This document shows, in pieces, positions 101 to 64,000 of a stretch of DNA of 64,000 bases. How positions within the stretch are numbered: position 1 is the stretch's first letter; each line of letters begins with the position of its first letter. The stretch covers positions 1-64,000 of the forward strand of contig BTWA01000007.1 in assembly GCA_045863295.1 (NCBI GenBank). Direction: 5' to 3'. The DNA is from Candidatus Hydrogenedentota bacterium (GTDB lineage Bacteria > Hydrogenedentota > Hydrogenedentia > Hydrogenedentales > SLHB01). The position numbers and the translations under genes are program-made. The notes beneath the pieces were generated by a model. That model did no database searches. It saw nothing but the letters and a program-made list of their open reading frames with translations, and was not told the DNA's origin.

Positions 101-1507
101 TTGGACGACAAAGATAGTTCGAATAGAGGTAGCGTGCGAAAACAGAATCCTTGGGATGCGGCTCAAGAGCAACTAAGACACACACTCGACGAACATAGCT
201 ACAAAAACTGGTTTTCCCAGACCCGGTTTGAATCCTGGGACAACGGCCGGCTGATTGTGGGCGCGCCAAGCCAGTTCTTTGCGGAATGGTTGCGTGACCA
301 TTTCAAGGACACGGTGTTGTCGTGTGTGCAAAGTGTCGAGCCCGGCGTCTCGCACATCCAGTTTGTGGTTTGCCCGGATCTGGCACAGGGAGGGCAGCCT
401 CCCGCTGAGAATGCGCCTGTAACTCGATCGGCGGGGGGAGTGATAGCCAGTACGGCACCGGAATCGATTAACCGACCGGAAGGCTTCAATCCGAGGTATG
501 TTTTCGATCGATTTGTCGTGGGAAGCGGCAATCGATTCGCCCATGCAGCGGCAAAGGCAGTCGCGGCGGCACCGGCACGCGCGTACAACCCGCTGTTTCT
601 TTACGGGGAAACCGGGTTGGGTAAGACCCACTTGATGCAGGCTCTGGGGCAAGACATCCTGATGCGAAAGCCAAACGCAACGGTAATGTTCATCTCATCC
701 GAGCAGTTCACCAATCAGCTCATCGAAAGCATTGCCAAGAAATCGACAAGCCGGTTTCGCTCCAAGTACCGCAAAGTGGATGTTCTGTTGATCGATGACA
801 TTCAGTTCATCTCGGGAAAGGAAGCCACTCAGGAAGAGTTTTTCCACACATTTAATGCGCTTTACGATAATCACAAGCAAATCGTGATTTCCAGCGATCG
901 CCAGCCCAAGGAAATCCAAGGACTGGAAAAACGATTGGTAACCCGCTTCGAGATGGGACTGGTAACCGATATCCAATCGCCGGATTTCGAAACCCGGGTC
1001 GCCATTCTGCAGAGCCGGGCCGCCGAAGAAAACCTGATCGTACCCACAGATGTGCTTGAGTACATTGCAACTCATGTAACCAGCAACATTCGTGAGTTGG
1101 AGGGAGCGCTGGTCACGGTGCTGGCGTACGCAAAGTTGACAGAACGGAAAATCAGCTTCAAATTGACAGAAGAGGTATTGCGCGACTTGATTGGACGCGC
1201 CCGGCTGCAAACCGTTACCTGCGAGGCAGTGCAGAAAGCGGCAGCGGAACATTTCGACCTGCGCTTGGCGGACATGAAGAGCAAGAGCCGGCAACGCCAA
1301 GTGGCTTTTCCGCGCCAAATTGCCATGTACTTGTGTAAAGAGGTCGTGCCAAACGTATCGCTGAGTGAGATCGGCGAAGCATTTGGCGGCAAGGACCACA
1401 CGACAGTGCTGTACGCGTGCCAGAAAATCAGCCAGCAAGTGAAGCGCGGTGGTGAAATCTCAAATCTTGTGAATCATTTACAAAGGATGATTCGCGATCA
1501 GATTTAA
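101..1507 (+). CDS. dnaA: Chromosomal replication initiator DnaA
   Basis: FDRFVVGSGNRFA, YNPLFLYGETGLGKTHL (Walker A), LLIDDIQF, NIRELEGAL, domain IV GGKDHTTVLYA; TTG start. Confidence 0.98.
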   Translation: MDDKDSSNRGSVRKQNPWDAAQEQLRHTLDEHSYKNWFSQTRFESWDNGRLIVGAPSQFFAEWLRDHFKDTVLSCVQSVEPGVSHIQFVVCPDLAQGGQPPAENAPVTRSAGGVIASTAPESINRPEGFNPRYVFDRFVVGSGNRFAHAAAKAVAAAPARAYNPLFLYGETGLGKTHLMQALGQDILMRKPNATVMFISSEQFTNQLIESIAKKSTSRFRSKYRKVDVLLIDDIQFISGKEATQEEFFHTFNALYDNHKQIVISSDRQPKEIQGLEKRLVTRFEMGLVTDIQSPDFETRVAILQSRAAEENLIVPTDVLEYIATHVTSNIRELEGALVTVLAYAKLTERKISFKLTEEVLRDLIGRARLQTVTCEAVQKAAAEHFDLRLADMKSKSRQRQVAFPRQIAMYLCKEVVPNVSLSEIGEAFGGKDHTTVLYACQKISQQVKRGGEISNLVNHLQRMIRDQI

Positions 1508-1649: not shown

Positions 1650-2375
1650 ATGAAATACCTTCAATCGCGCAAAGTGATTGGAGCGCTAATTCTCTCGGCG
1701 ATACTTTTTACTTTGCAGCATGGGCCATCCAATGCGGCGGAAGCACAGGCCGACGACCCATATGCCGGTACATCCAAGACCAAAGTGGGTGACCTTGCAC
1801 CAGCATTTGAAGTACCGGCCATCGACGGAAAGATCATTAAGTCCGAGGAATGGAAGGGAAAAGTGGGGGTCATTGTCTTTTTTGCGACATGGTGCGGCCC
1901 ATGCCGTGCAGAACTCCCCGCAGTGGAAAAAGAACTCTGGTTAAAACACAAGGACGCTCCGTTTGAGTTGGTTGTCATTGGCCGCGAGCACACCAACGAC
2001 GAACTCGCTTCATTCAAAACTGAGACCGGTTATACATTTCCACTGGCGGGAGACCCAGAGCGTGCCGTATACGGCAAGTATGCGACAAAATACATTCCTC
2101 GAACCTACGTGATCGGCGCTGACGGAAAGATTTTGTTTCAATCGATCGGATATGAAAAGCCGGAGTTTGAGGAGATGCAAAAAGTCGTGGAGACCGCGCT
2201 GGCAGGATTGGAACAGGCCAGTCTATCCCCCAGCCAGGGTCTGCAACCTGAATCGCCGGGTACGCAACGGGTCAGCGACTCCAAGGCCCCGGCTGTCTCC
2301 AACGGATCCGGGTTGAAAGGCATCGAAGTGGGCGGCGAAATACGTGTTCGAGCGAGCTACTACCACAAAGACTGA
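1650..2375 (+). CDS. Exported TlpA/ResA-family thioredoxin-fold redoxin with C-terminal extension
   Basis: Signal peptide, VGDLAPAF, FFATWCGPC (CxxC), IPRTYVIG; ATG at 1650 has GGAGG upstream. Confidence 0.88.
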   Translation: MKYLQSRKVIGALILSAILFTLQHGPSNAAEAQADDPYAGTSKTKVGDLAPAFEVPAIDGKIIKSEEWKGKVGVIVFFATWCGPCRAELPAVEKELWLKHKDAPFELVVIGREHTNDELASFKTETGYTFPLAGDPERAVYGKYATKYIPRTYVIGADGKILFQSIGYEKPEFEEMQKVVETALAGLEQASLSPSQGLQPESPGTQRVSDSKAPAVSNGSGLKGIEVGGEIRVRASYYHKD

Positions 2376-6564: not shown

Positions 6565-7230
6565 ATGTCCCTCGTTTTTGCCAGGCGCAAGCCTTGCCAT
6601 GCGAAGCCGAACCCCCTTCGGCCGAAAGTCCCAGCCCAATGGCCCTGGATTGCGTCCGGCGGCATGCGCTCGGTGGTTTCCATAGTTTTGCTGGTAGTAT
6701 TGGCCCAATTCTTTGTTGTGCAGTGGGTATATGGGATGGCTTTTTATCTGGTGCCCACCGAGTCGATGCAGCCGACTCTGGAACCCAAGGACCGGCTTGT
6801 CACCCTGAGAAGTAGCCAGTACCGAAGGGGGGATGTGGTGGTCGCACGGGATCCGCTTGATCAGGATTCGTTTGTCGTGAAGCGAATTGTCGCCGTGGCC
6901 GGTGATACGGTGTCCGTCTCAAAAGGTCGGTTGCATGTCAATGGGCGACTTGTGCCCGAGCCTTATCTGATTGCCTCAATGTATTACGTATTCGGTCCAA
7001 TCACGATACGGCAGGGTGAAGTATTTCTCCTGGGCGACAACCGCAATGCGAGCGAGGATGGACACATCTGGCAACAGGGCGTTCCAATCGCAGACATCAT
7101 GGGAAAAGTGACCCACATCTACTACCCGTTTGGACGCAGCGGCAAATTGCCGTCCTTCGACTACGTCTACTCAGGCATCCGCAATGAAACCGACTTCAGC
7201 GAAAGACCCGCATTCTCCGTCGGTCCGTGA
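6565..7230 (+). CDS. lepB: Signal peptidase I
   Basis: VPTESMQPTL (Ser), VVKRIVA (Lys), FLLGDNRNASED; GGAGG before ATG 6565. Confidence 0.9.
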   Translation: MSLVFARRKPCHAKPNPLRPKVPAQWPWIASGGMRSVVSIVLLVVLAQFFVVQWVYGMAFYLVPTESMQPTLEPKDRLVTLRSSQYRRGDVVVARDPLDQDSFVVKRIVAVAGDTVSVSKGRLHVNGRLVPEPYLIASMYYVFGPITIRQGEVFLLGDNRNASEDGHIWQQGVPIADIMGKVTHIYYPFGRSGKLPSFDYVYSGIRNETDFSERPAFSVGP

Positions 7231-7422
7231 GGCGGTTGCCTCGTTGGTGGCCGGGATAAAAGGAGGCTCCACGGTTTCCGGGGTCAGCAATTGATCCAGC
7301 GCAAACCCGATGGAGAGCAACACGATGGCTGCTACAAATCCCAGCACTATCAGCACTGCAAACCATTTCAAGTTGCGGCGTTCTCTGGCTTCGTCGATGT
7401 TATACGGGTTGCTCGGTTCCAT
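7171..7422 (-). CDS. Small single-TM hypothetical protein
   Basis: ATG with GAGG upstream, one long hydrophobic helix; 3' end overlaps lepB. Confidence 0.55.
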   Translation of the reverse strand: MEPSNPYNIDEARERRNLKWFAVLIVLGFVAAIVLLSIGFALDQLLTPETVEPPFIPATNEATASRTDGECGSFAEVGFIADA

Positions 7423-7566
7423 TGCCTCGTCTCATCCTGAGTTTGCAATTCTGCCGGAAATTTGCTCCTGGCCGGCTAAAACGCTCTGATCGAACAGGCG
7501 CGAACACCCATAGGTTTTAGCATACATTGACGCATTGCCGCTAATTCACTCATATTAGTACAGTCA

Positions 7567-7605
7567 TGTCCAGTTTTTGAACAAACCGTGTCCAAAGTTT
7601 GTACT
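7567..7605. promoter_or_regulatory. Tandem putative enhancer (UAS) sites for a sigma54 activator
   Basis: TGTCCAgttttTGAACA (7567) and TGTCCAaagttTGTACT (7589): imperfect palindromes 22 bp apart, about 110-150 bp upstream of a sigma54 promoter. Confidence 0.55.
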
Positions 7606-7711
7606 TTCTCGCCATTCAAAGATGCATCTGCGATATTGCTATTTTATGCAATCTGCGCCTTTTTATGGAATTTAGACAAATATTGTGGTGCATTCGGTCG
7701 GAATGGTGGCG

Positions 7712-7727
7712 TGGCACAAAGATTGCT
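7712..7727 (+). promoter_or_regulatory. sigma54 (-24/-12) promoter
   Basis: TGGCACAAAGATTGCT matches TGGCAC-N5-TTGCW, 50 nt before ATG 7777. Confidence 0.8.
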
Positions 7728-7776
7728 CTTACATCAATTGTGTTTAGCGGTAAAAAGCCGGTCACGAAGGAATGGA

Positions 7777-7998
7777 ATGATGGACTTGGACCCAAAAGCA
7801 GGCGGTCATCACGATACCGAAGCAGTCTTCCGGCTCGTGCTGGAATCCTTCTCCGGAAACGTGCACCTCGCCGCGATCGCCCTCGGGGTTGAAGTGGAAT
7901 CGCTGCTTGTTTGGGTGGGGCCCGCATTCGAAATGGCGACACGGCAAACGGATCATCCTTATCAAGGTACGGTCCGCAGCGAAAAACACGCTGCATGA
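7777..7998 (+). CDS. Stand-alone degenerate Fis-type HTH microprotein (73 aa)
   Basis: VLESFSGNVHLAAIALGV resembles the Fis/HTH_8 pattern AL...GN...AA..LG[IV]; AAGGA upstream; sigma54 promoter upstream. Confidence 0.55.
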   Translation: MMDLDPKAGGHHDTEAVFRLVLESFSGNVHLAAIALGVEVESLLVWVGPAFEMATRQTDHPYQGTVRSEKHAA

Positions 7999-8122
7999 TG
8001 GCGTGATCCCAGAGGGATCACCGCGCATGCAACCAGCATTGCCCACGACGCACGTTGCGTCCGGCCGGTCCGGAACCGCTTCGGCGGATTCCGGCCGGCC
8101 CGGACGCGGCGGAAAGCATTCC

Positions 8123-8187
8123 GGTTTCATGGGGTTGTCCGAGGAAATGGCTCCTCTCCGGGCAAACCTGTGAAACCTTTTTCATTT
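8123..8187 (+). terminator. Long terminator hairpin ending the sigma54 transcript
   Basis: GGTTTCATGG...CTGTGAAACC stem (G-U pairs favour the + strand) then TTTTTCATTT. Confidence 0.6.
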
Positions 8188-8206
8188 GAATCCGTAATAC
8201 CGCCCC

Positions 8207-8384
8207 AAAAAGAAATGCGCCAGGCCGTGAGACCATAGCGCACTCTTCGGAGGCAAGACCTTTCCGGTCTGAACCGGAGGGCGATGGGATCTACCGCCCG
8301 GCTGCTCTTTCAAGCTGCCTCAGGTCTATATATTTTGACATCCGTGTCATTCGGGCCTCGACTTCCTTGTCTCGGCCATCCATG
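8207..8384 (-). ncRNA. Putative sigma28-dependent sRNA 1 (about 180 nt) with CsrA-type GGA hairpins
   Basis: Own promoter; hairpins GAC-AAGGAA-GTC and TGACA-CGGA-TGTCA plus 5' CATCATGGATG; terminator GTGCGC...GCGCAT-TTCTTTTT; paralogous to sRNA 2. Confidence 0.7.
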
Positions 8385-8389
8385 ATGTA

Positions 8390-8416
8390 CTATCGGCGGA
8401 AACGCAAAAAACTTGA
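8390..8416 (-). promoter_or_regulatory. sigma28/FliA promoter (sRNA 1)
   Basis: Minus strand TCAAGTTT-N11-GCCGATAG. Confidence 0.75.
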
Positions 8417-8468
8417 GTGAATTGAGCGCTTTCGGAAAACAGGAGATTCATTTGCCTAGTTGTGGCAT

Positions 8469-8697
8469 AAAAGTGAAATGCGCCGCAACGGGGATTGCAG
8501 CGCACTCAAGGAAGAAATACGTAGGGACTTGCGAGTCTCCGGACTGGCGGGATAGACCAACCGGCGACTGTGCCGCTTAGGAGATTGGATAGGTCTCCTT
8601 GGCGGGAGAATGCGGCGAGGGATGAGCACCGCATTCCGTTTTCAACTGTCCGACATCCGTGTCGAGTTGCCTTAGCATCCTTGCTTCGGCCTTGTAC
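8469..8697 (-). ncRNA. Putative sigma28-dependent sRNA 2 (about 230 nt) with CsrA-type GGA hairpins and AUCC loops
   Basis: Own promoter; hairpins AGCA-AGGA-TGCT and CGACA-CGGA-TGTCG; three further stem-loops; terminator GTGCGCTGCAA...TTGCGGCGCAT-TTCACTTTT. Confidence 0.72.
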
Positions 8698-8702
8698 TCT
8701 GT

Positions 8703-8729
8703 ATATCGGCCGGGTGGTTCAAAACTTTA
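8703..8729 (-). promoter_or_regulatory. sigma28/FliA promoter (sRNA 2)
   Basis: Minus strand TAAAGTTT-N11-GCCGATAT, one mismatch to the TAAAGTTT-N11-GCCGATAA consensus. Confidence 0.85.
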
Positions 8730-8882
8730 GCATTCCACAAGGGGTTGTGTGTTGATTCGGAAATGGTTTTATCCGTTGGGGCAAGCTGGTACAATCTTCC
8801 TGAGGGTCGGGTCGCGCGCACGAATGGCGGAAGTGCCCTGCGGCCCATGGGTGTCCTTTCCGGGGCAAGGGTAGGCGAACGC

Positions 8883-9731
8883 ATGAGCGTGGTTGTCTTT
8901 GGGGCCGGCGGTCAATTGGGCCGCGATCTCCTCCGTGTATTTTCCCGGACAGAGGACGTGTTTCCCTATGACCATCACGACGTGGATATCACCAATCGCG
9001 ATGCCGTGATGAAATGTATGCAGTCCGTTAATCCGGCTTGGGTCATTAATGCCGCCGCCTATACCGACGTGGAAAAGTCGGAAGACGATCGAGACGCCGC
9101 GTTTCGAGTCAATGAAACCGGTGCTCGTGTCGTGGCGCAATGCGCGCATGTTCAGAATGTGCCGGTCGTTTACTTCAGCACGGATTTTGTTTTCGATGGA
9201 ACGGCATACACTCCGTACGAACCCGAAGATGCCATTGAACCCCGAGGCGCGTATGCACAGTCAAAAGCCGCGGGCGAAGCCGCCGTGAGGTCGGTATCGC
9301 CCCGTCATTACATCGTGCGCACCGCGTGGTTGTACGGACCGGGAGGAAACAACTTTGTAGAGAAGATACTGAATGCCGCCTCCGTACGGCCTTCGTTGCG
9401 CGTGGTTACAGACGAAATAGGCTCTCCGACGCATACGCTCGACTTGGCGCGTGCAACCGCCGCGCTCGTATGCACCGGACAGTACGGTACGTACCATGCC
9501 GTAAACGAAGGGAGTTGTTCCCGGTTCGCATTTGCGGAGTCAATCGTGCGCGAGGCCGGGCTCGCCACTCAAATTGAACCGTGTTTGGCGTCGGACTATC
9601 CGTCCAAAGCGCCGCGTCCATCGTATTCAGTGATGTCGAATGCCAAGTTGAAGGCTGCGTGCGGAATAGAGATGCCGCAATGGCAGACCGCTCTGGCTGA
9701 GTATATGAAGAGAAGGGAGATCCAGGAATGA
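8883..9731 (+). CDS. rfbD: dTDP-4-dehydrorhamnose reductase
   Basis: GAGGQLG, INAAAYTDVE, STDFVFDG, YAQSK, IVRTAWLYG, APRPSYS; ATG at 8883. Confidence 0.95.
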   Translation: MSVVVFGAGGQLGRDLLRVFSRTEDVFPYDHHDVDITNRDAVMKCMQSVNPAWVINAAAYTDVEKSEDDRDAAFRVNETGARVVAQCAHVQNVPVVYFSTDFVFDGTAYTPYEPEDAIEPRGAYAQSKAAGEAAVRSVSPRHYIVRTAWLYGPGGNNFVEKILNAASVRPSLRVVTDEIGSPTHTLDLARATAALVCTGQYGTYHAVNEGSCSRFAFAESIVREAGLATQIEPCLASDYPSKAPRPSYSVMSNAKLKAACGIEMPQWQTALAEYMKRREIQE

Positions 9732-10726
9732 AGCGCGTCGTGGTGACAGGTGGGGCAGGTTTTATCGGGTCCAACTTTGTCCGTTACATGTTGGCCACGT
9801 ATCCGGAAGTGCACATTGTCAATGTGGACAAGCTTACGTATGCGGGCAATCTCGAAAACTTGAAGGGAATCGACGAGTCGCGCCACACCTTTGTGAAGGC
9901 GGATATCGCCGATCCGGAAGCCATGGATCGGGCGATGGAAGGCGCCGACGCTATCGCGAGCTTCGCGGCCGACAGCCACGTCGACCGAAGCATCATGGAG
10001 GCCGCCGACTTCATCGCGACCAACGTCAAAGGGGTCCACAACATTCTTGAATCCGCCAAGAAACACGGGACCAAGCGGATACTGCTGGTCTCCACCGACG
10101 AAGTGTACGGCAGCATCGCGCAAGGCTCTTTCAAGGAAACCGATCCCGTCAATCCTCGAAATCCCTATTCCGCCAGCAAGGCCGGCGGTGAATTGCTTGG
10201 CATGTCGTATTTCCACACGTTTGGATTGCCGGTAATCATTACCCGAGGTTCCAACACATACGGGCCGTATCAATACCCGGAGAAAGTATTACCTCTGTTT
10301 GTAACCAATGCCATCGACGGGGAGCCGCTTCCACTCTACGGCGACGGCAAAAATGTCCGGGACTGGCTATACGTCGAAGACCACTGCCGCGGCGTCGATC
10401 ACGCTCTGCGCCATGGCACACCCGGAAATGTCTACAACGTCGCCGGCGAAAACGAACGGGAAAACGTCACGCTTACCCATCGAATCCTCGAACTCACGGG
10501 CCGGGGACACGATCTGATCAAACCTGTTGCGGACAGACCGGGTCACGACCGCCGGTATTCGATTGATTCGACCAAGTTAAAGGCGCTCGGTTGGGAACCC
10601 AAAATGCCGTGGGACGACGGCGTCGCAAAGACCGTCGAGTGGTATCAACAGAACGAATGGTGGTGGAGGCCCATCAAATCCGGTGCGTTCCGCGATTACT
10701 ACCAGCGGCAATACGGAAACAGGTGA
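9728..10726 (+). CDS. rfbB: dTDP-glucose 4,6-dehydratase
   Basis: TGGAGFIGSNF, DKLTYAGNLENL, SHVDRSI, STDEVYGS, YSASK, DRPGHDRRY. Confidence 0.97.
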   Translation: MKRVVVTGGAGFIGSNFVRYMLATYPEVHIVNVDKLTYAGNLENLKGIDESRHTFVKADIADPEAMDRAMEGADAIASFAADSHVDRSIMEAADFIATNVKGVHNILESAKKHGTKRILLVSTDEVYGSIAQGSFKETDPVNPRNPYSASKAGGELLGMSYFHTFGLPVIITRGSNTYGPYQYPEKVLPLFVTNAIDGEPLPLYGDGKNVRDWLYVEDHCRGVDHALRHGTPGNVYNVAGENERENVTLTHRILELTGRGHDLIKPVADRPGHDRRYSIDSTKLKALGWEPKMPWDDGVAKTVEWYQQNEWWWRPIKSGAFRDYYQRQYGNR

Positions 10727-24504: not shown

Positions 24505-25332
24505 TCAGGGCATGAAGTCGTCCGCGCGTTCACGCACGAACAAGCGAAGCCGCTTCATCACGTCATTCTCGATTTGCCGGATACGTTCCCGCGTGAGGCT
24601 GAATTTCCGGCCCGTCTCCTCAAGCGTATGCGCCTTGCCGTCCATCAGGCCGTACCGGTAGCGGACTATCTTCTGCTCCCGCTCATTAAGCTGCTTCATG
24701 ATCTCTTCGAGTTGCTGATCCAGCTCGATTTGTTCGATGGCCTGATCGACCCGCCGAGGTTCCACACTCTCCGGAATCCCCCGGCCGTCTTCGTCGTTCA
24801 TGCTGTCCAGATTGTCCAGTGGCGAAACATCGTCCACAAACGACTGCAGCTTCCGCGCCTCGGAGGCCTTGATTCCCATCGCCTCGGCAATTTCTTCGGG
24901 ATCGGGTCGCCGGCCCGTCTTGATGTACAACTCCTCCGACGTCTTCTTATAGCGGGCAATATTGTCGGTCACGTACACCGGAATCCGGACCGTCCGGCCG
25001 TAGTTGGAAAGAGCCCGTGTAATCGCCTGCCGAATCCACCACGTGGCATACGTCGAAAATTTGCACCCTCGGCCCGGGTCAAACCGGTCCACTGCCTTCA
25101 TGAGTCCCAGGTTGCCTTCCTCAATAAGATCCTGCAAAGGCAATCCAAAGTAGAGATATTTCTTGGCAATACTCACAACCAGCCGTAGATTGGACACAAT
25201 GAGTTTGCGCCTCGCCTCGCCCTCGCCTTTCAGCGCCAGCTCCGCAAGCCGTATCTCCTCTTTGGGACTAAGCAGGGGAATGCGCGAGATCTCCGCAAGA
25301 TACGTGCTCAATCCGCTTTCGCGCATGTCCAT
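24505..25332 (-). CDS. RpoD/RpoS-like (group 2-type) sigma70 factor lacking region 1.1
   Basis: [55 protein letters not shown]. Confidence 0.92.
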
Positions 25333-25591
25333 TCAGGCGGGTCCTTTACAGCCGAATTCCGTGCGGCAGTGTAAACAATAAACGCGGTCCAAGCCCGGCA
25401 GCCCTGTTCGACGGGTCGTTACACAACCTGTGCAGCGGCAAGGGCATTCTACTGAAGCACCGAAAATTCATTCAAGACCGCGATGGAACCATGTCCTGTC
25501 GTAGTATTCTCACCGGTTTGTCCAATATCATGTATCGGACCGGCCCCGATCAAACTTGAACCCGGACCCACTACCAAGCAAAATCTGCCCC

Positions 25592-62895: not shown

Positions 62896-64000
62896 TCGGC
62901 CGACTTTCAATATCAATCAGGTATACGCGTACCTGATTGTCGAAGAATTAGTCCGGTGCGGCGTCGAATTGTTTTGCATTGCACCGGGATCGCGATCGAC
63001 CCCGTTAACCCTCGCCGCGGCCATGAATCCAAAAGCCAGAACCGTTGTCCATTACGACGAGCGTGGATTGGCTTACTTCGCGCTGGGATATGCGCGAGGC
63101 GCCGGAAAGCCCGCGGCAGTCATTACGACATCCGGTACTGCCGCCGCGAATTTGCATCCCGCCCTGATTGAGGCTTCCAAGAGCAACGTTCCACTGATTC
63201 TACTTACCGCCGATCGGCCACCGGAAGCCAGGGATTCCGGCGCCAATCAGACCATCGATCAGGTGAAACTGTTTGGCAATGCGGTGCGCTGGTGGCACGA
63301 GTTTGCATGTCCGCACTTGGGTCTCGAAATTCCGGCTCAAGCCATTTTGTCTGCCGTCGACTACGCGTTACAGCGTGCGCGCGAACAGGGCGGTGGCCCG
63401 GTCCACTTGAATTGCCCTTACCGGGAACCCTTGGGCAGCGCTGCCCCCGAGCCTGGTATCGTCCGTTTACTCAACCTGTTTCCAGGCGCATCCGAATGGC
63501 ACACCAGCCAACAACCGAATTCACGGTCATTGCCGGGCAAAATTCAACCAAGCGAAGAAGCGCAGCGGGAGTTGATCGACATCGTTGCTGCGGCGAGACA
63601 ACCGCTTCTCGTCGTGGGTCAACTTAATCGCGTAGAAGATGCTCGAATGGTCGAGCGGTTTCTGGAATCTGCTCGGTGGCCCGTGTTTGCCGACATTTGT
63701 TCGGGTATTCGCCTTGGAACTCATGGCGGATACTCCGATCTTTTACTTGGTACCAATCCATTCAACTCTTTCATTGCAACGGATTTGATTGTGTATGCCG
63801 GCGGCGCGGTCACTTCGAAAACAACGCTTCAGTTCTTGGAAAATGCACGCCCCAAACACTTCGTGCGCGCGCTCGATCATCCATTTCGCCACGATGCGAC
63901 GTTTCGATCCACGCTGCGCGTTGAAACGGCCTTTGCACCTTTCTTCCAGTGGATGGAGGAAGTCACGCCCAAGGTTGATAACTCCGATTGGCAGAATGGT
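62885..64000 (+). CDS. menD: SEPHCHC synthase MenD (runs off the window end; absent from the ORF track)
   Basis: From ATG 62885: LIVEELVRCGV, IAPGSRSTPL, HYDERG, TTSGTAAANLHPA, LTADRPPE, GANQTIDQ, GPVHLNCPYREPL. Confidence 0.95.
   Translation, partial: MSTDRPTFNINQVYAYLIVEELVRCGVELFCIAPGSRSTPLTLAAAMNPKARTVVHYDERGLAYFALGYARGAGKPAAVITTSGTAAANLHPALIEASKSNVPLILLTADRPPEARDSGANQTIDQVKLFGNAVRWWHEFACPHLGLEIPAQAILSAVDYALQRAREQGGGPVHLNCPYREPLGSAAPEPGIVRLLNLFPGASEWHTSQQPNSRSLPGKIQPSEEAQRELIDIVAAARQPLLVVGQLNRVEDARMVERFLESARWPVFADICSGIRLGTHGGYSDLLLGTNPFNSFIATDLIVYAGGAVTSKTTLQFLENARPKHFVRALDHPFRHDATFRSTLRVETAFAPFFQWMEEVTPKVDNSDWQNG

Follow-up and report, generated by a model that had tools for sequence, protein, structure and literature searches.

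Small RNAs (sRNAs) that engage CsrA are best represented by CsrB/CsrC and RsmX/Y/Z of the Gammaproteobacteria, which are non-coding, present many GGA sites in short hairpin loops, have their own promoters and terminators, occur as paralogous copies, depend on GacA/UvrY for their transcription and are covered by Rfam models. The BarA-UvrY system that drives the Csr sRNAs is anti-correlated with the protein FliW (PMC7652899), and the passages on FliW-type organisms in three articles (PMC4894983, PMC7652899, PMC6546359) report no dedicated sRNA antagonist of CsrA and name flagellin mRNA as the sole known RNA titrator. The flaA leader of Campylobacter jejuni, with its CANGGANG twin hexaloops, is indeed both repressed by CsrA and able to titrate it (PMC4894983), and the hag leader of Bacillus subtilis belongs to the same kind of CsrA-FliW-flagellin circuit. 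Other RNAs combine two activities, such as McaS and GadY of Escherichia coli, where a base-pairing region and a few CsrA-engaging GGA sites are found in one molecule (PMC7652899), and in B. subtilis CsrA binds both the sRNA SR1 and its target ahrC and promotes their pairing (PMC6546359). Lastly, several sRNAs of the late flagellar genes depend on sigma28 (FliA) and feed back on flagellin or filament synthesis: FliX, MotR and UhpU of E. coli, which derive from untranslated regions and pair inside the fliC coding sequence, FliX lowering fliC mRNA (PMC10578931), and the FliA-dependent CJnc170 (FlmR) of C. jejuni, whose overexpression shortens the flagella (PMC11187230). Here we describe two predicted tandem sRNA genes with sigma28-type promoters, units A and B, located in a 64,000-nt stretch (the window) of contig BTWA01000007.1 of a Candidatus Hydrogenedentota bacterium (GCA_045863295.1), together with the RNA family to which they belong. 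This family resembles McaS/GadY, the flaA leader and the sigma28-dependent sRNAs, and is a member of none of these groups. We put at slightly better than even, about 0.55, the probability that its members are dual-module sRNAs, with a CsrA-binding decoy at the 5' end and an antisense tail aimed at flagellin start regions.

Both units are on the minus strand, head to tail within positions 8207-8729 of the window (Table 1), and all the promoters, hairpins and terminators that an earlier note on this DNA had listed were found where it had placed them. The predicted RNAs are strongly structured: the minimum free energy (MFE) is -86.5 kcal/mol for unit A (z = -4.13) and -74.4 kcal/mol for unit B (z = -3.96), each beating 200 of 200 shuffled sequences, and in both folds GGA triplets are found in hairpin loops. 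According to blastn, the resemblance between the two units is confined to the promoter, the two hairpins and the terminator, unit A having a long structured middle part between hairpin 2 and the terminator, and the same program detected no third copy in the genome. Short open reading frames (ORFs) of the minus strand overlap both units and none is common to the two in register, as the earlier note had reported; the differences in inter-hairpin spacer length among homologs (alignment A3) are, moreover, not multiples of three. The absence of a described Rfam family was also borne out, no Rfam 15 model matching the window at its gathering score, while a permissive search (E up to 10, positions 7900-9000) returned nhaA-II as its sole match. 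The latter lies at 8044-8126 (minus strand), in a G+C-rich stretch downstream of unit B, and was put down to chance, its score being 17.8 bits (E = 6.7) where the gathering score is 70.4. Seventeen sequencing runs hold part of the stretch, one of them recorded as an RNA library; the single contig that this run provides on 7700-9300 (152 nt, 8529-8680) falls inside unit A and was not counted as evidence of expression, because such libraries can contain DNA and contigs show neither ends nor strand; the positions without coverage are uninformative.

Table 1. Elements of the two tandem units (coordinates are positions in the 64,000-nt window)
Feature	Position	Strand	Sequence or structure	Basis or remark
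Unit A sigma28-type promoter	8703..8729	-	TAAAGTTT-N11-GCCGATAT	Sequence reading and exact match in genome-wide motif scan
Unit A predicted sRNA	8469..8697	-	About 229 nt	Predicted 5' end (promoter geometry) and 3' end (T run)
Unit A hairpin 1	8669..8690	-	GCC-GA-AGC-AAGGAT-GCT-AA-GGC; outer GCC/GGC, 2x2 purine internal loop, inner AGC/GCU, loop AAGGAU	
Unit A hairpin 2	8651..8664	-	Stem (C)GAC / GUC(G), loop ACGGAU	
Unit A central hairpin	8607..8637	-	AUCCC in loop	MFE fold; second such hairpin at about 8535-8568
Unit A pre-terminator tract	8508..8522	-	ACGUAUUUCUUCCUU	Complements the region from the Shine-Dalgarno (SD) sequence to the AUG of two flagellin mRNAs of the same genome (contig C21)
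Unit A intrinsic terminator	8469..8507	-	GAGTGCGC...GCGCATTTC; stem 8507-8476, then T run	Terminator scan and fold
Unit B sigma28-type promoter	8390..8416	-	TCAAGTTT-N11-GCCGATAG	Sequence reading and motif scan
Unit B predicted sRNA	8207..8384	-	About 178 nt	Sequence, fold and match to covariance model R1
Unit B hairpin 1	8355..8376	-	GCC-GA-GAC-AAGGAA-GUC-GA-GGC	
Unit B hairpin 2	8336..8349	-	Stem (U)GAC / GUC(A), loop ACGGAU	
Unit B central hairpin	8279..8299	-	GGGCGG-UAGAUCCCA-UCGCCC, AUCCC loop	
Unit B pre-terminator tract	8246..8260	-	GGUCUUGCCUCCGAA	Anti-SD-like
Unit B intrinsic terminator	8207..8245	-	GAGUGCGCUAUGG...GGCGCAUUUC, then UUUUU	

When 60 relatives were searched at the DNA level, the promoter and the pair of hairpins turned up in many of them, frequently in tandem arrays of two or three units. 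The covariance model R1 was built from 25 aligned copies and starts 4 nt after the -10 element, the promoter thus being outside the model. In the genome of origin it finds unit B (71.7 bits, 8324-8385) and unit A (61.7 bits, 8639-8699), the next best place scoring 15.4 bits. Taking as strong the matches with E < 1e-8, a cut set above the noise seen in this genome, the search of related genomes foreseen in the earlier note yielded strong R1 matches in 98 of the 134 other Candidatus Hydrogenedentota genomes. A sigma28-type promoter ends 1-9 nt upstream of 48 of the 49 R1 matches in the loci fetched first, 25 of the sequences behind these matches being promoter-selected seeds and the remainder having been found by the promoter-free model. 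A terminator is present within about 420-430 nt for 45 of these 49 matches and for 74 of the 81 matches of a wider set (59 genomes), and the 74 terminated RNAs have a median length of 178 nt (range 114-405). Among 121 sampled genomes of the phylum of a metagenome-assembled genome (MAG) labelled Planctomycetota, the best R1 score was 25.6 bits and the top five places, without a promoter or twin GGA loops, were considered spurious; nothing was found in five single genomes of other lineages. Nearly all relatives of the rmlD gene next to the units are from MAGs bearing the label Candidatus Hydrogenedentota or Hydrogenedentales, and the lineage is as little studied as had been supposed.

The 5' module is made of the two GGA hairpins, both of which are best read as a 3-bp stem of the GAC/GUC type closing a six-base loop A-N-GGA-N. 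Structure statistics were computed on 81 sequences from 59 genomes. In hairpin 1, 99.6% of the cells of the outer stem and 99.2% of those of the inner stem are paired. Double-sided changes occur in 7 of the 10 pairs modelled in all (for example A-U in 73 sequences and G-C in 7, with none unpaired), a level of covariation that none of 500 shuffles reached. Sliding the 3' partners by one to three columns lowered the pairing from 95.0% to 11.5-50.7%. Because the alignment was fitted to the model, and kinship alone can make related sequences beat shuffles without any structure, it is the double changes and the slide control that carry the weight. The GAC/GUC core of hairpin 2 hardly varies and is therefore uninformative on pairing; as for the compensatory closing pair that the earlier note had seen in this hairpin, it exists, but is really a fourth, outermost pair, formed in only 44 of the 81 members. 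The reading, from two copies, of paralogous non-coding RNAs whose GGA-loop hairpins are conserved and covary is supported in the family.

In both hairpins the six-base loop is closed by C-G (CANGGANG), and both loops read C-A-N-GGA-N-G in most of the 81 members, the A and the GGA being kept in nearly every row of alignment A3 and the N taking all four bases. The CsrA ligands obtained by SELEX mostly have a six-base loop closed by flanking AC and GU, and a single CsrA dimer spans a pair of sites when 10-63 nt separate them, more than 18 nt being best (PMC7652899). Judged on sequence by what PMC7652899 and PMC4894983 describe of such site pairs, the 5' module presents GGA hexaloops closed by AC/GU, and its GGA-to-GGA distance, 22 nt in unit A and 23 nt in unit B, falls inside the range of 10-63 nt and above 18 nt. 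As high-affinity pairs of sites for one CsrA dimer are laid out in this way, and flagellin leaders too, we infer that the 5' module binds CsrA. The GGA bases are predicted to be unpaired with a probability of 0.71. Altogether unit A has six GGA and unit B four, where base composition predicts about 3.9 and about 3.0, and across 45 RNAs the number ranges from 2 to 8, close to the expectation from base composition, with two sites conserved. The status of a multi-site sponge similar to CsrB or RsmZ is not supported.

The window corresponds to contig C7 of an assembly of 6.3 Mb (88 contigs, 56.6% G+C, 96% complete), and the genes fliA, csrA and fliW, for which the earlier note had proposed a genome check, are all encoded there. 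The fliA gene product scores 253.8 bits, above the NCBIfam cut-off, and csrA (91.7 bits) directly follows fliW (114.2 bits) on contig C46; the CsrA protein has 73 amino acids, of which residues 1-58 align with E. coli CsrA (E = 1.6e-16). The genome also has several flagellin genes. The idea of an RNA standing in place of FliW thus had to be abandoned, FliW being found, in addition, in 105 of the 135 genomes of the phylum. Neither Hfq nor ProQ was found in this 96%-complete genome. The promoters of the units have the form of sigma28 class III promoters, with a TAAAGTTT-like -35 element, an 11-nt spacer and a GCCGATAA-like -10 element. The exact motif occurs six times in the genome: two of these are units A and B, and three of the other four precede flgM (C20:66707-66853), a weaker FlgM-like ORF and flgN; a version with one mismatch lies ahead of the flagellin gene C4:150873. 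As the motif is found ahead of late flagellar genes, it is, as far as the sequence tells, the late flagellar promoter of this organism, in keeping with the sigma28 assignment made at the outset.

The distribution of the RNA was compared with those of csrA and flagellin in the 134 other genomes. A strong RNA match is accompanied by csrA in 92 of them and occurs without it in six (G030, G056, G079, G091, G114 and G121, of 60-95% completeness); csrA with a weak or no RNA match is found in 11, and neither in 25. With flagellin the agreement is 97 genomes for both and 29 for neither, one genome having a strong RNA match without flagellin and seven flagellin with a weak or no match. Joint losses are seen in most of family f11 and in genomes G007, G097 and G099. 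The RNA is part of the flagellar gene set, and co-occurrence cannot separate a partner of CsrA from any other late flagellar gene. Its surroundings vary: relatives have it divergent from rmlD at 22 of 53 rmlD loci, as in the window, and other copies are beside flagellin clusters or elsewhere. In the window, the rmlD-rmlB genes of the dTDP-rhamnose pathway lie at 8745-10726 (plus strand), divergent from the sRNA genes, and they are also found at loci L038-L076; a link of this neighbourhood with flagellin glycosylation is conceivable.

Conservation extends to the 3' two-thirds of the RNAs, which follow a common layout of one to three hairpins with (A/G)UCCC loops, then a C/U-rich tract, then the terminator. 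ATCCC is present in the central part of 54 of 74 RNAs (7.2 expected), UCCC is inside a hairpin loop of the MFE fold in 56 of the 74, and the flanks of UCCC form stems of at least 5 bp at 60% of 115 sites, as compared with 15% when the flanks are shuffled. The C/U-rich tract takes forms such as GUCUUACCCUCU, UCUUACCUCCUU and UUUCCCUCCAU, conserved across families, and the 5' half of the terminator that comes after it, GAGUGCGCC, is itself conserved in sequence. The tract resembles the anti-SD tail of 16S rRNA, ACCUCCUU being common to the tract of several members and to the 16S 3' tails of two relatives, from which the tail was taken, the 16S gene of the genome itself being cut by a contig end. 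Beside family members, tandem sigma28 units without the twin GGA hairpins were noticed at loci L013 (about 1690-1799, minus strand), L022 (about 1697-1810, plus strand) and L024 (about 1170-1276, minus strand); by eye, they retain an AUCCC-type loop, the C/U-rich tract and a GAGUGCGCC-type terminator, and the 3' module may exist without the 5' module.

The predicted target of this 3' module is the flagellin mRNA. We inspected 60 of 64 fetched flagellin leaders (4 from the genome itself, 20 spread over seven genomes and 36 out of 40 belonging to nineteen others), and in all 60 the SD is embedded in (C/U/A)GGAGG at the end of the leader. Visual inspection shows that most of these leaders further contain a hairpin upstream, whose loop is of the A(A/G/U)GGAU type, and a CACUCA box before the SD, the combination of hairpin and SD being the layout of CsrA-repressed leaders. 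In certain flagellin mRNAs the tract is complementary to a stretch that runs from the CACUCA box across the SD up to the AUG and contains the second CsrA site of the leader. For the tract of unit A, the flagellin start regions C21:61869 and C21:63143 rank 7th and 18th of 15,801 candidates in the genome, with predicted duplexes of -27.5 and -28.1 kcal/mol that only 0.003 of the controls equal, the controls being 300 start regions containing GGAGG. In a first set of sRNA-flagellin pairs taken within genomes, 10 of 37 pairs beat 98% of the controls, in 7 of 8 genomes, where less than one such pair was expected. In genome G029 one duplex reaches about 22 bp and -37.7 kcal/mol, and G109 and G110 both have two sRNA paralogs that match distinct flagellin paralogs. 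A second set (18 genomes, 49 pairs), less complete in that it often held one flagellin and one sRNA out of several per genome, gave a best pair beating 98% of the controls in 5 of 18 genomes (about one expected) and reaching the 5% level in 7. Over both sets, the best within-genome pair beats 98% of the controls in 12 of 26 genomes, and the good pairs span nine genera and four families, close relatives not being independent. The conserved AUCCC loops and the anti-SD-like tract complementary to flagellin start regions thus point to a base-pairing role on flagellin, besides or instead of titration.

Two further observations were made on pairing partners and on flagellin leaders. For the pre-terminator region of unit B, the strongest predicted duplex (about 30 bp, -49.3 kcal/mol, the next candidate being at -37.3 kcal/mol) forms with a site on the plus strand of contig C11, at about 96470-96510, which lies inside the coding sequence of an ORF with zinc-ribbon, transmembrane and TPR-like features and not at a start site; it may be a chance match or a real target. 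About 550 nt upstream of the flagellin gene C21:62715 stands a second sigma28-type promoter (locus L033; minus strand of contig C21, about 63131-63709). The long leader has, by eye, several GGA-loop hairpins, and R1 matches it weakly (14.9 bits, C21:63565-63627). It could bind CsrA at several sites, or be an sRNA unit that has degenerated and reads through into the flagellin gene.

From the promoters, hairpins, covariation, terminators, distribution, co-occurrence and complementarity computed here, we infer the transcription, the CsrA binding, the in vivo pairing and the direction of effect that make up the following scheme, in which the family would act inside the flagellin-FliW-CsrA circuit. 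FliA would transcribe the two independent sRNA genes together with flagellin mRNA. The 5' twin hexaloops would bind one CsrA dimer, and the tail would pair with the ribosome-binding region of the cognate flagellin mRNAs and limit or tune their translation, perhaps helped by the AUCCC loops, whose complement is the GGGAU loop that many flagellin leaders carry. CsrA would either be titrated or serve as a matchmaker for the pairing, in a genome with no detected Hfq or ProQ. Pairing over an SD normally represses translation, hence the net role would most likely be that of limiting or tuning flagellin synthesis, in the manner of FliX in E. coli (PMC10578931). A more elaborate version, which we regard as tentative and rather doubtful, is that of a two-faced adaptor. 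The twin hexaloops would mimic the flagellin leader to CsrA, and the AUCCC loops and anti-SD tract would mimic CsrA to the leader, as complements of both of its CsrA sites, the GGGAU loop and the SD; a CsrA dimer would then hold the sRNA and the leader hairpin together and pass the ribosome-binding site from protein to RNA, with sRNA paralogs tuned to flagellin paralogs.

Several observations weigh against the dual-module proposal. Its two activities would oppose each other, CsrA binding relieving repression and blocking of the SD imposing it, and either may dominate. As to distribution, four genomes of one genus, in the same family (G028, G126, G127 and G128), have csrA and fliW but neither a flagellin (E up to 1e-20) nor a strong RNA match, so that the RNA tracks the flagellum at least as closely as it tracks CsrA; these genomes may have retained the CsrA-FliW pair without a filament, or their genes may be divergent or unassembled. 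As to pairing, the tract of unit B matches the flagellin start regions of its own genome no better than it matches controls (ranks 1280-5587, best control fraction 0.107), and all the controls come from the single genome of the window. In 11 of the 18 genomes of the second set no pair reached the 5% level of the controls, many of them having only one flagellin and one sRNA out of several tried. When all tracts were run against all flagellins across genomes the effect was small (mean of -19.97 against -18.13 kcal/mol, 56 of 74 tracts favouring flagellin), and as anti-SD-like tracts pair with any strong SD, part of the signal is generic. The tract is also barely more open than the rest of the RNA in the predicted ensemble (0.46 against an average of 0.40, and above average in 44 of 74), and part of the complementarity to flagellin falls in the 5' half of the terminator stem.

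One competitor is a pure CsrA sponge linked to FliA, along the lines of the earlier note: titration through the two GGA hairpins would boost flagellin translation once FliA is active, the 3' half serving stability and termination. The sigma28 promoters and CsrA-like hairpins of that proposal have held, and it would account for the twin CANGGANG hexaloops, where the RNA is most conserved and which agree with high-affinity sites in the literature, for the presence of csrA in 92 of the 98 genomes carrying the RNA and for the tandem copies, since two or three per locus would raise the dose; RNA titration of CsrA also has a precedent in a FliW organism, with the flaA leader of C. jejuni (PMC4894983). 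However, each RNA offers two conserved sites only, FliW is present and already serves as an antagonist, and the conserved 3' half, which had been overlooked, counts against it: neither the phylum-wide conservation of the AUCCC loops, of the pre-terminator tract and of the 5' half of the terminator, nor the flagellin-specific and paralog-specific complementarity would be explained, and the sibling sigma28 units noticed by eye keep the 3' features without the twin hairpins. Titration as the sole function is accordingly a reading that we hold to be unlikely.

The converse simplification would make the family plain base-pairing sRNAs of the late flagellar genes, similar to FliX and CJnc170, whose C-rich tail represses flagellin or other mRNAs and whose GGA hairpins are not CsrA sites but may pair with the UCCC loops and tract of the same RNA to fold or mask the seed. 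Sigma28-dependent sRNAs acting on flagellin are known (PMC10578931, PMC11187230), the tract complements flagellin start regions and is only partly open in the predicted ensembles, and, since the GGA loops complement the UCCC/CCUCC elements, internal pairing is possible. On the other hand, the GAC/GUC stems, the loop A and the GGA are kept in sequence, and not just in pairing, in nearly every member, as recognition by a sequence-specific protein predicts; the hairpins match the CsrA consensus position by position, and their GGA bases are predicted to be unpaired. A role without CsrA is distinctly improbable. We also considered that the units could be cis-acting leaders or attenuators of downstream minus-strand genes, with CsrA-dependent termination, or genes for small peptides, given the short ORFs that overlap both units and the unnamed minus-strand ORFs downstream (7616-8130). 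The promoter of unit B immediately follows unit A and a strong terminator ends each unit, the downstream ORFs have no Pfam family, the neighbourhood differs between copies, and no reading frame is common to the units, the spacers varying out of frame. Both the leader and the small-peptide readings were rejected on account of the separate promoters and terminators, varied neighbourhoods and out-of-frame spacers, and we give them hardly any chance of being correct.

With the dual-module reading as the preferred one, the place of the family among the systems described above can be specified. It shares with CsrB/CsrC and RsmX/Y/Z the non-coding nature, the GGA in short hairpin loops, the individual promoters and terminators, the paralogous copies and the presumed binding of CsrA, but it has two conserved sites instead of many, a sigma28 promoter (no search for GacA/UvrY sites having been made) and an additional antisense 3' module, and none of the Rfam models of these sponges matches it. 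On both site number and Rfam models the family therefore lies outside the Csr/Rsm sponges, and its host has FliW, which is anti-correlated with BarA-UvrY (PMC7652899). A generic scan of the genome for clusters of GGA-loop hairpins detected no CsrB-like locus, although such a scan does not discriminate, the background being 1.9 per kb with many windows at 5-7, and its 4-bp rule misses hairpin 1. McaS and GadY, which are Hfq-dependent, have no sequence or Rfam relation to the family and are not flagellar sigma28 genes, and the predicted target of the family is the flagellin mRNA itself.

The own promoter, the intrinsic terminator and the lack of a conserved ORF are features of trans-acting sRNAs, to which complementarity to a target beyond that of controls adds in 12 of 26 genomes and not for unit B in its own genome; the chaperone gene that would make the RNA an Hfq- or ProQ-dependent sRNA was not found in the genome. 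Within this phylum, flagellin leaders combine a hairpin site with an SD site, as the flaA and hag leaders do, and the twin hexaloops of the family are carried by a separate, terminated, non-coding RNA that also bears the complement of the SD site of the leader. The sRNAs of the E. coli sigma28 study, the main text of which does not mention CsrA, are, like CJnc170, not homologous to the family, and they pair within the fliC coding sequence, as opposed to the SD and start region predicted here (PMC10578931). SR1 and ahrC, from a FliW-type organism, are a precedent for CsrA as a matchmaker, SR1 being non-flagellar and unrelated in sequence (PMC6546359). No earlier description of the family was found in the literature searched, supplements excluded, and Rfam 15 has no model of it.

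Elsewhere in the window, nothing but overlapping ORFs of the two strands is seen in the segment of about 1 kb downstream of unit B (7230-8207), and no Pfam family matches any of them (7588-7998, plus strand; 7616-7996 and 7762-8130, minus strand). At 24544-25559 (minus strand) an ORF of 275 amino acids belongs to the sigma-70 family, with a partial FliA/WhiG match of 103.4 bits that is below the cut-off, and is preceded by a near-consensus sigma28-type motif (25533-25559); this ORF may encode a second sigma factor that is controlled with the late flagellar genes.

The design proposed here would unite two known ideas, a decoy of CsrA sites and an antisense tail directed against the very site of flagellin mRNA that CsrA occupies, and could be tested by bringing together CsrA, the sRNA and a flagellin leader as the three components. 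The covariance model and the sigma28 motif, checked against late flagellar genes of the same genome, can be used for the annotation of Hydrogenedentota genomes. If the two-faced adaptor were true, an RNA partner switch would be layered on the protein partner switch of FliW, CsrA and flagellin, and the family would be the first dedicated class of CsrA-associated sRNAs in a FliW-type lineage. More generally, the family would add an RNA layer to the FliW-type CsrA circuit in an uncultured candidate phylum whose molecular biology has hardly been touched.

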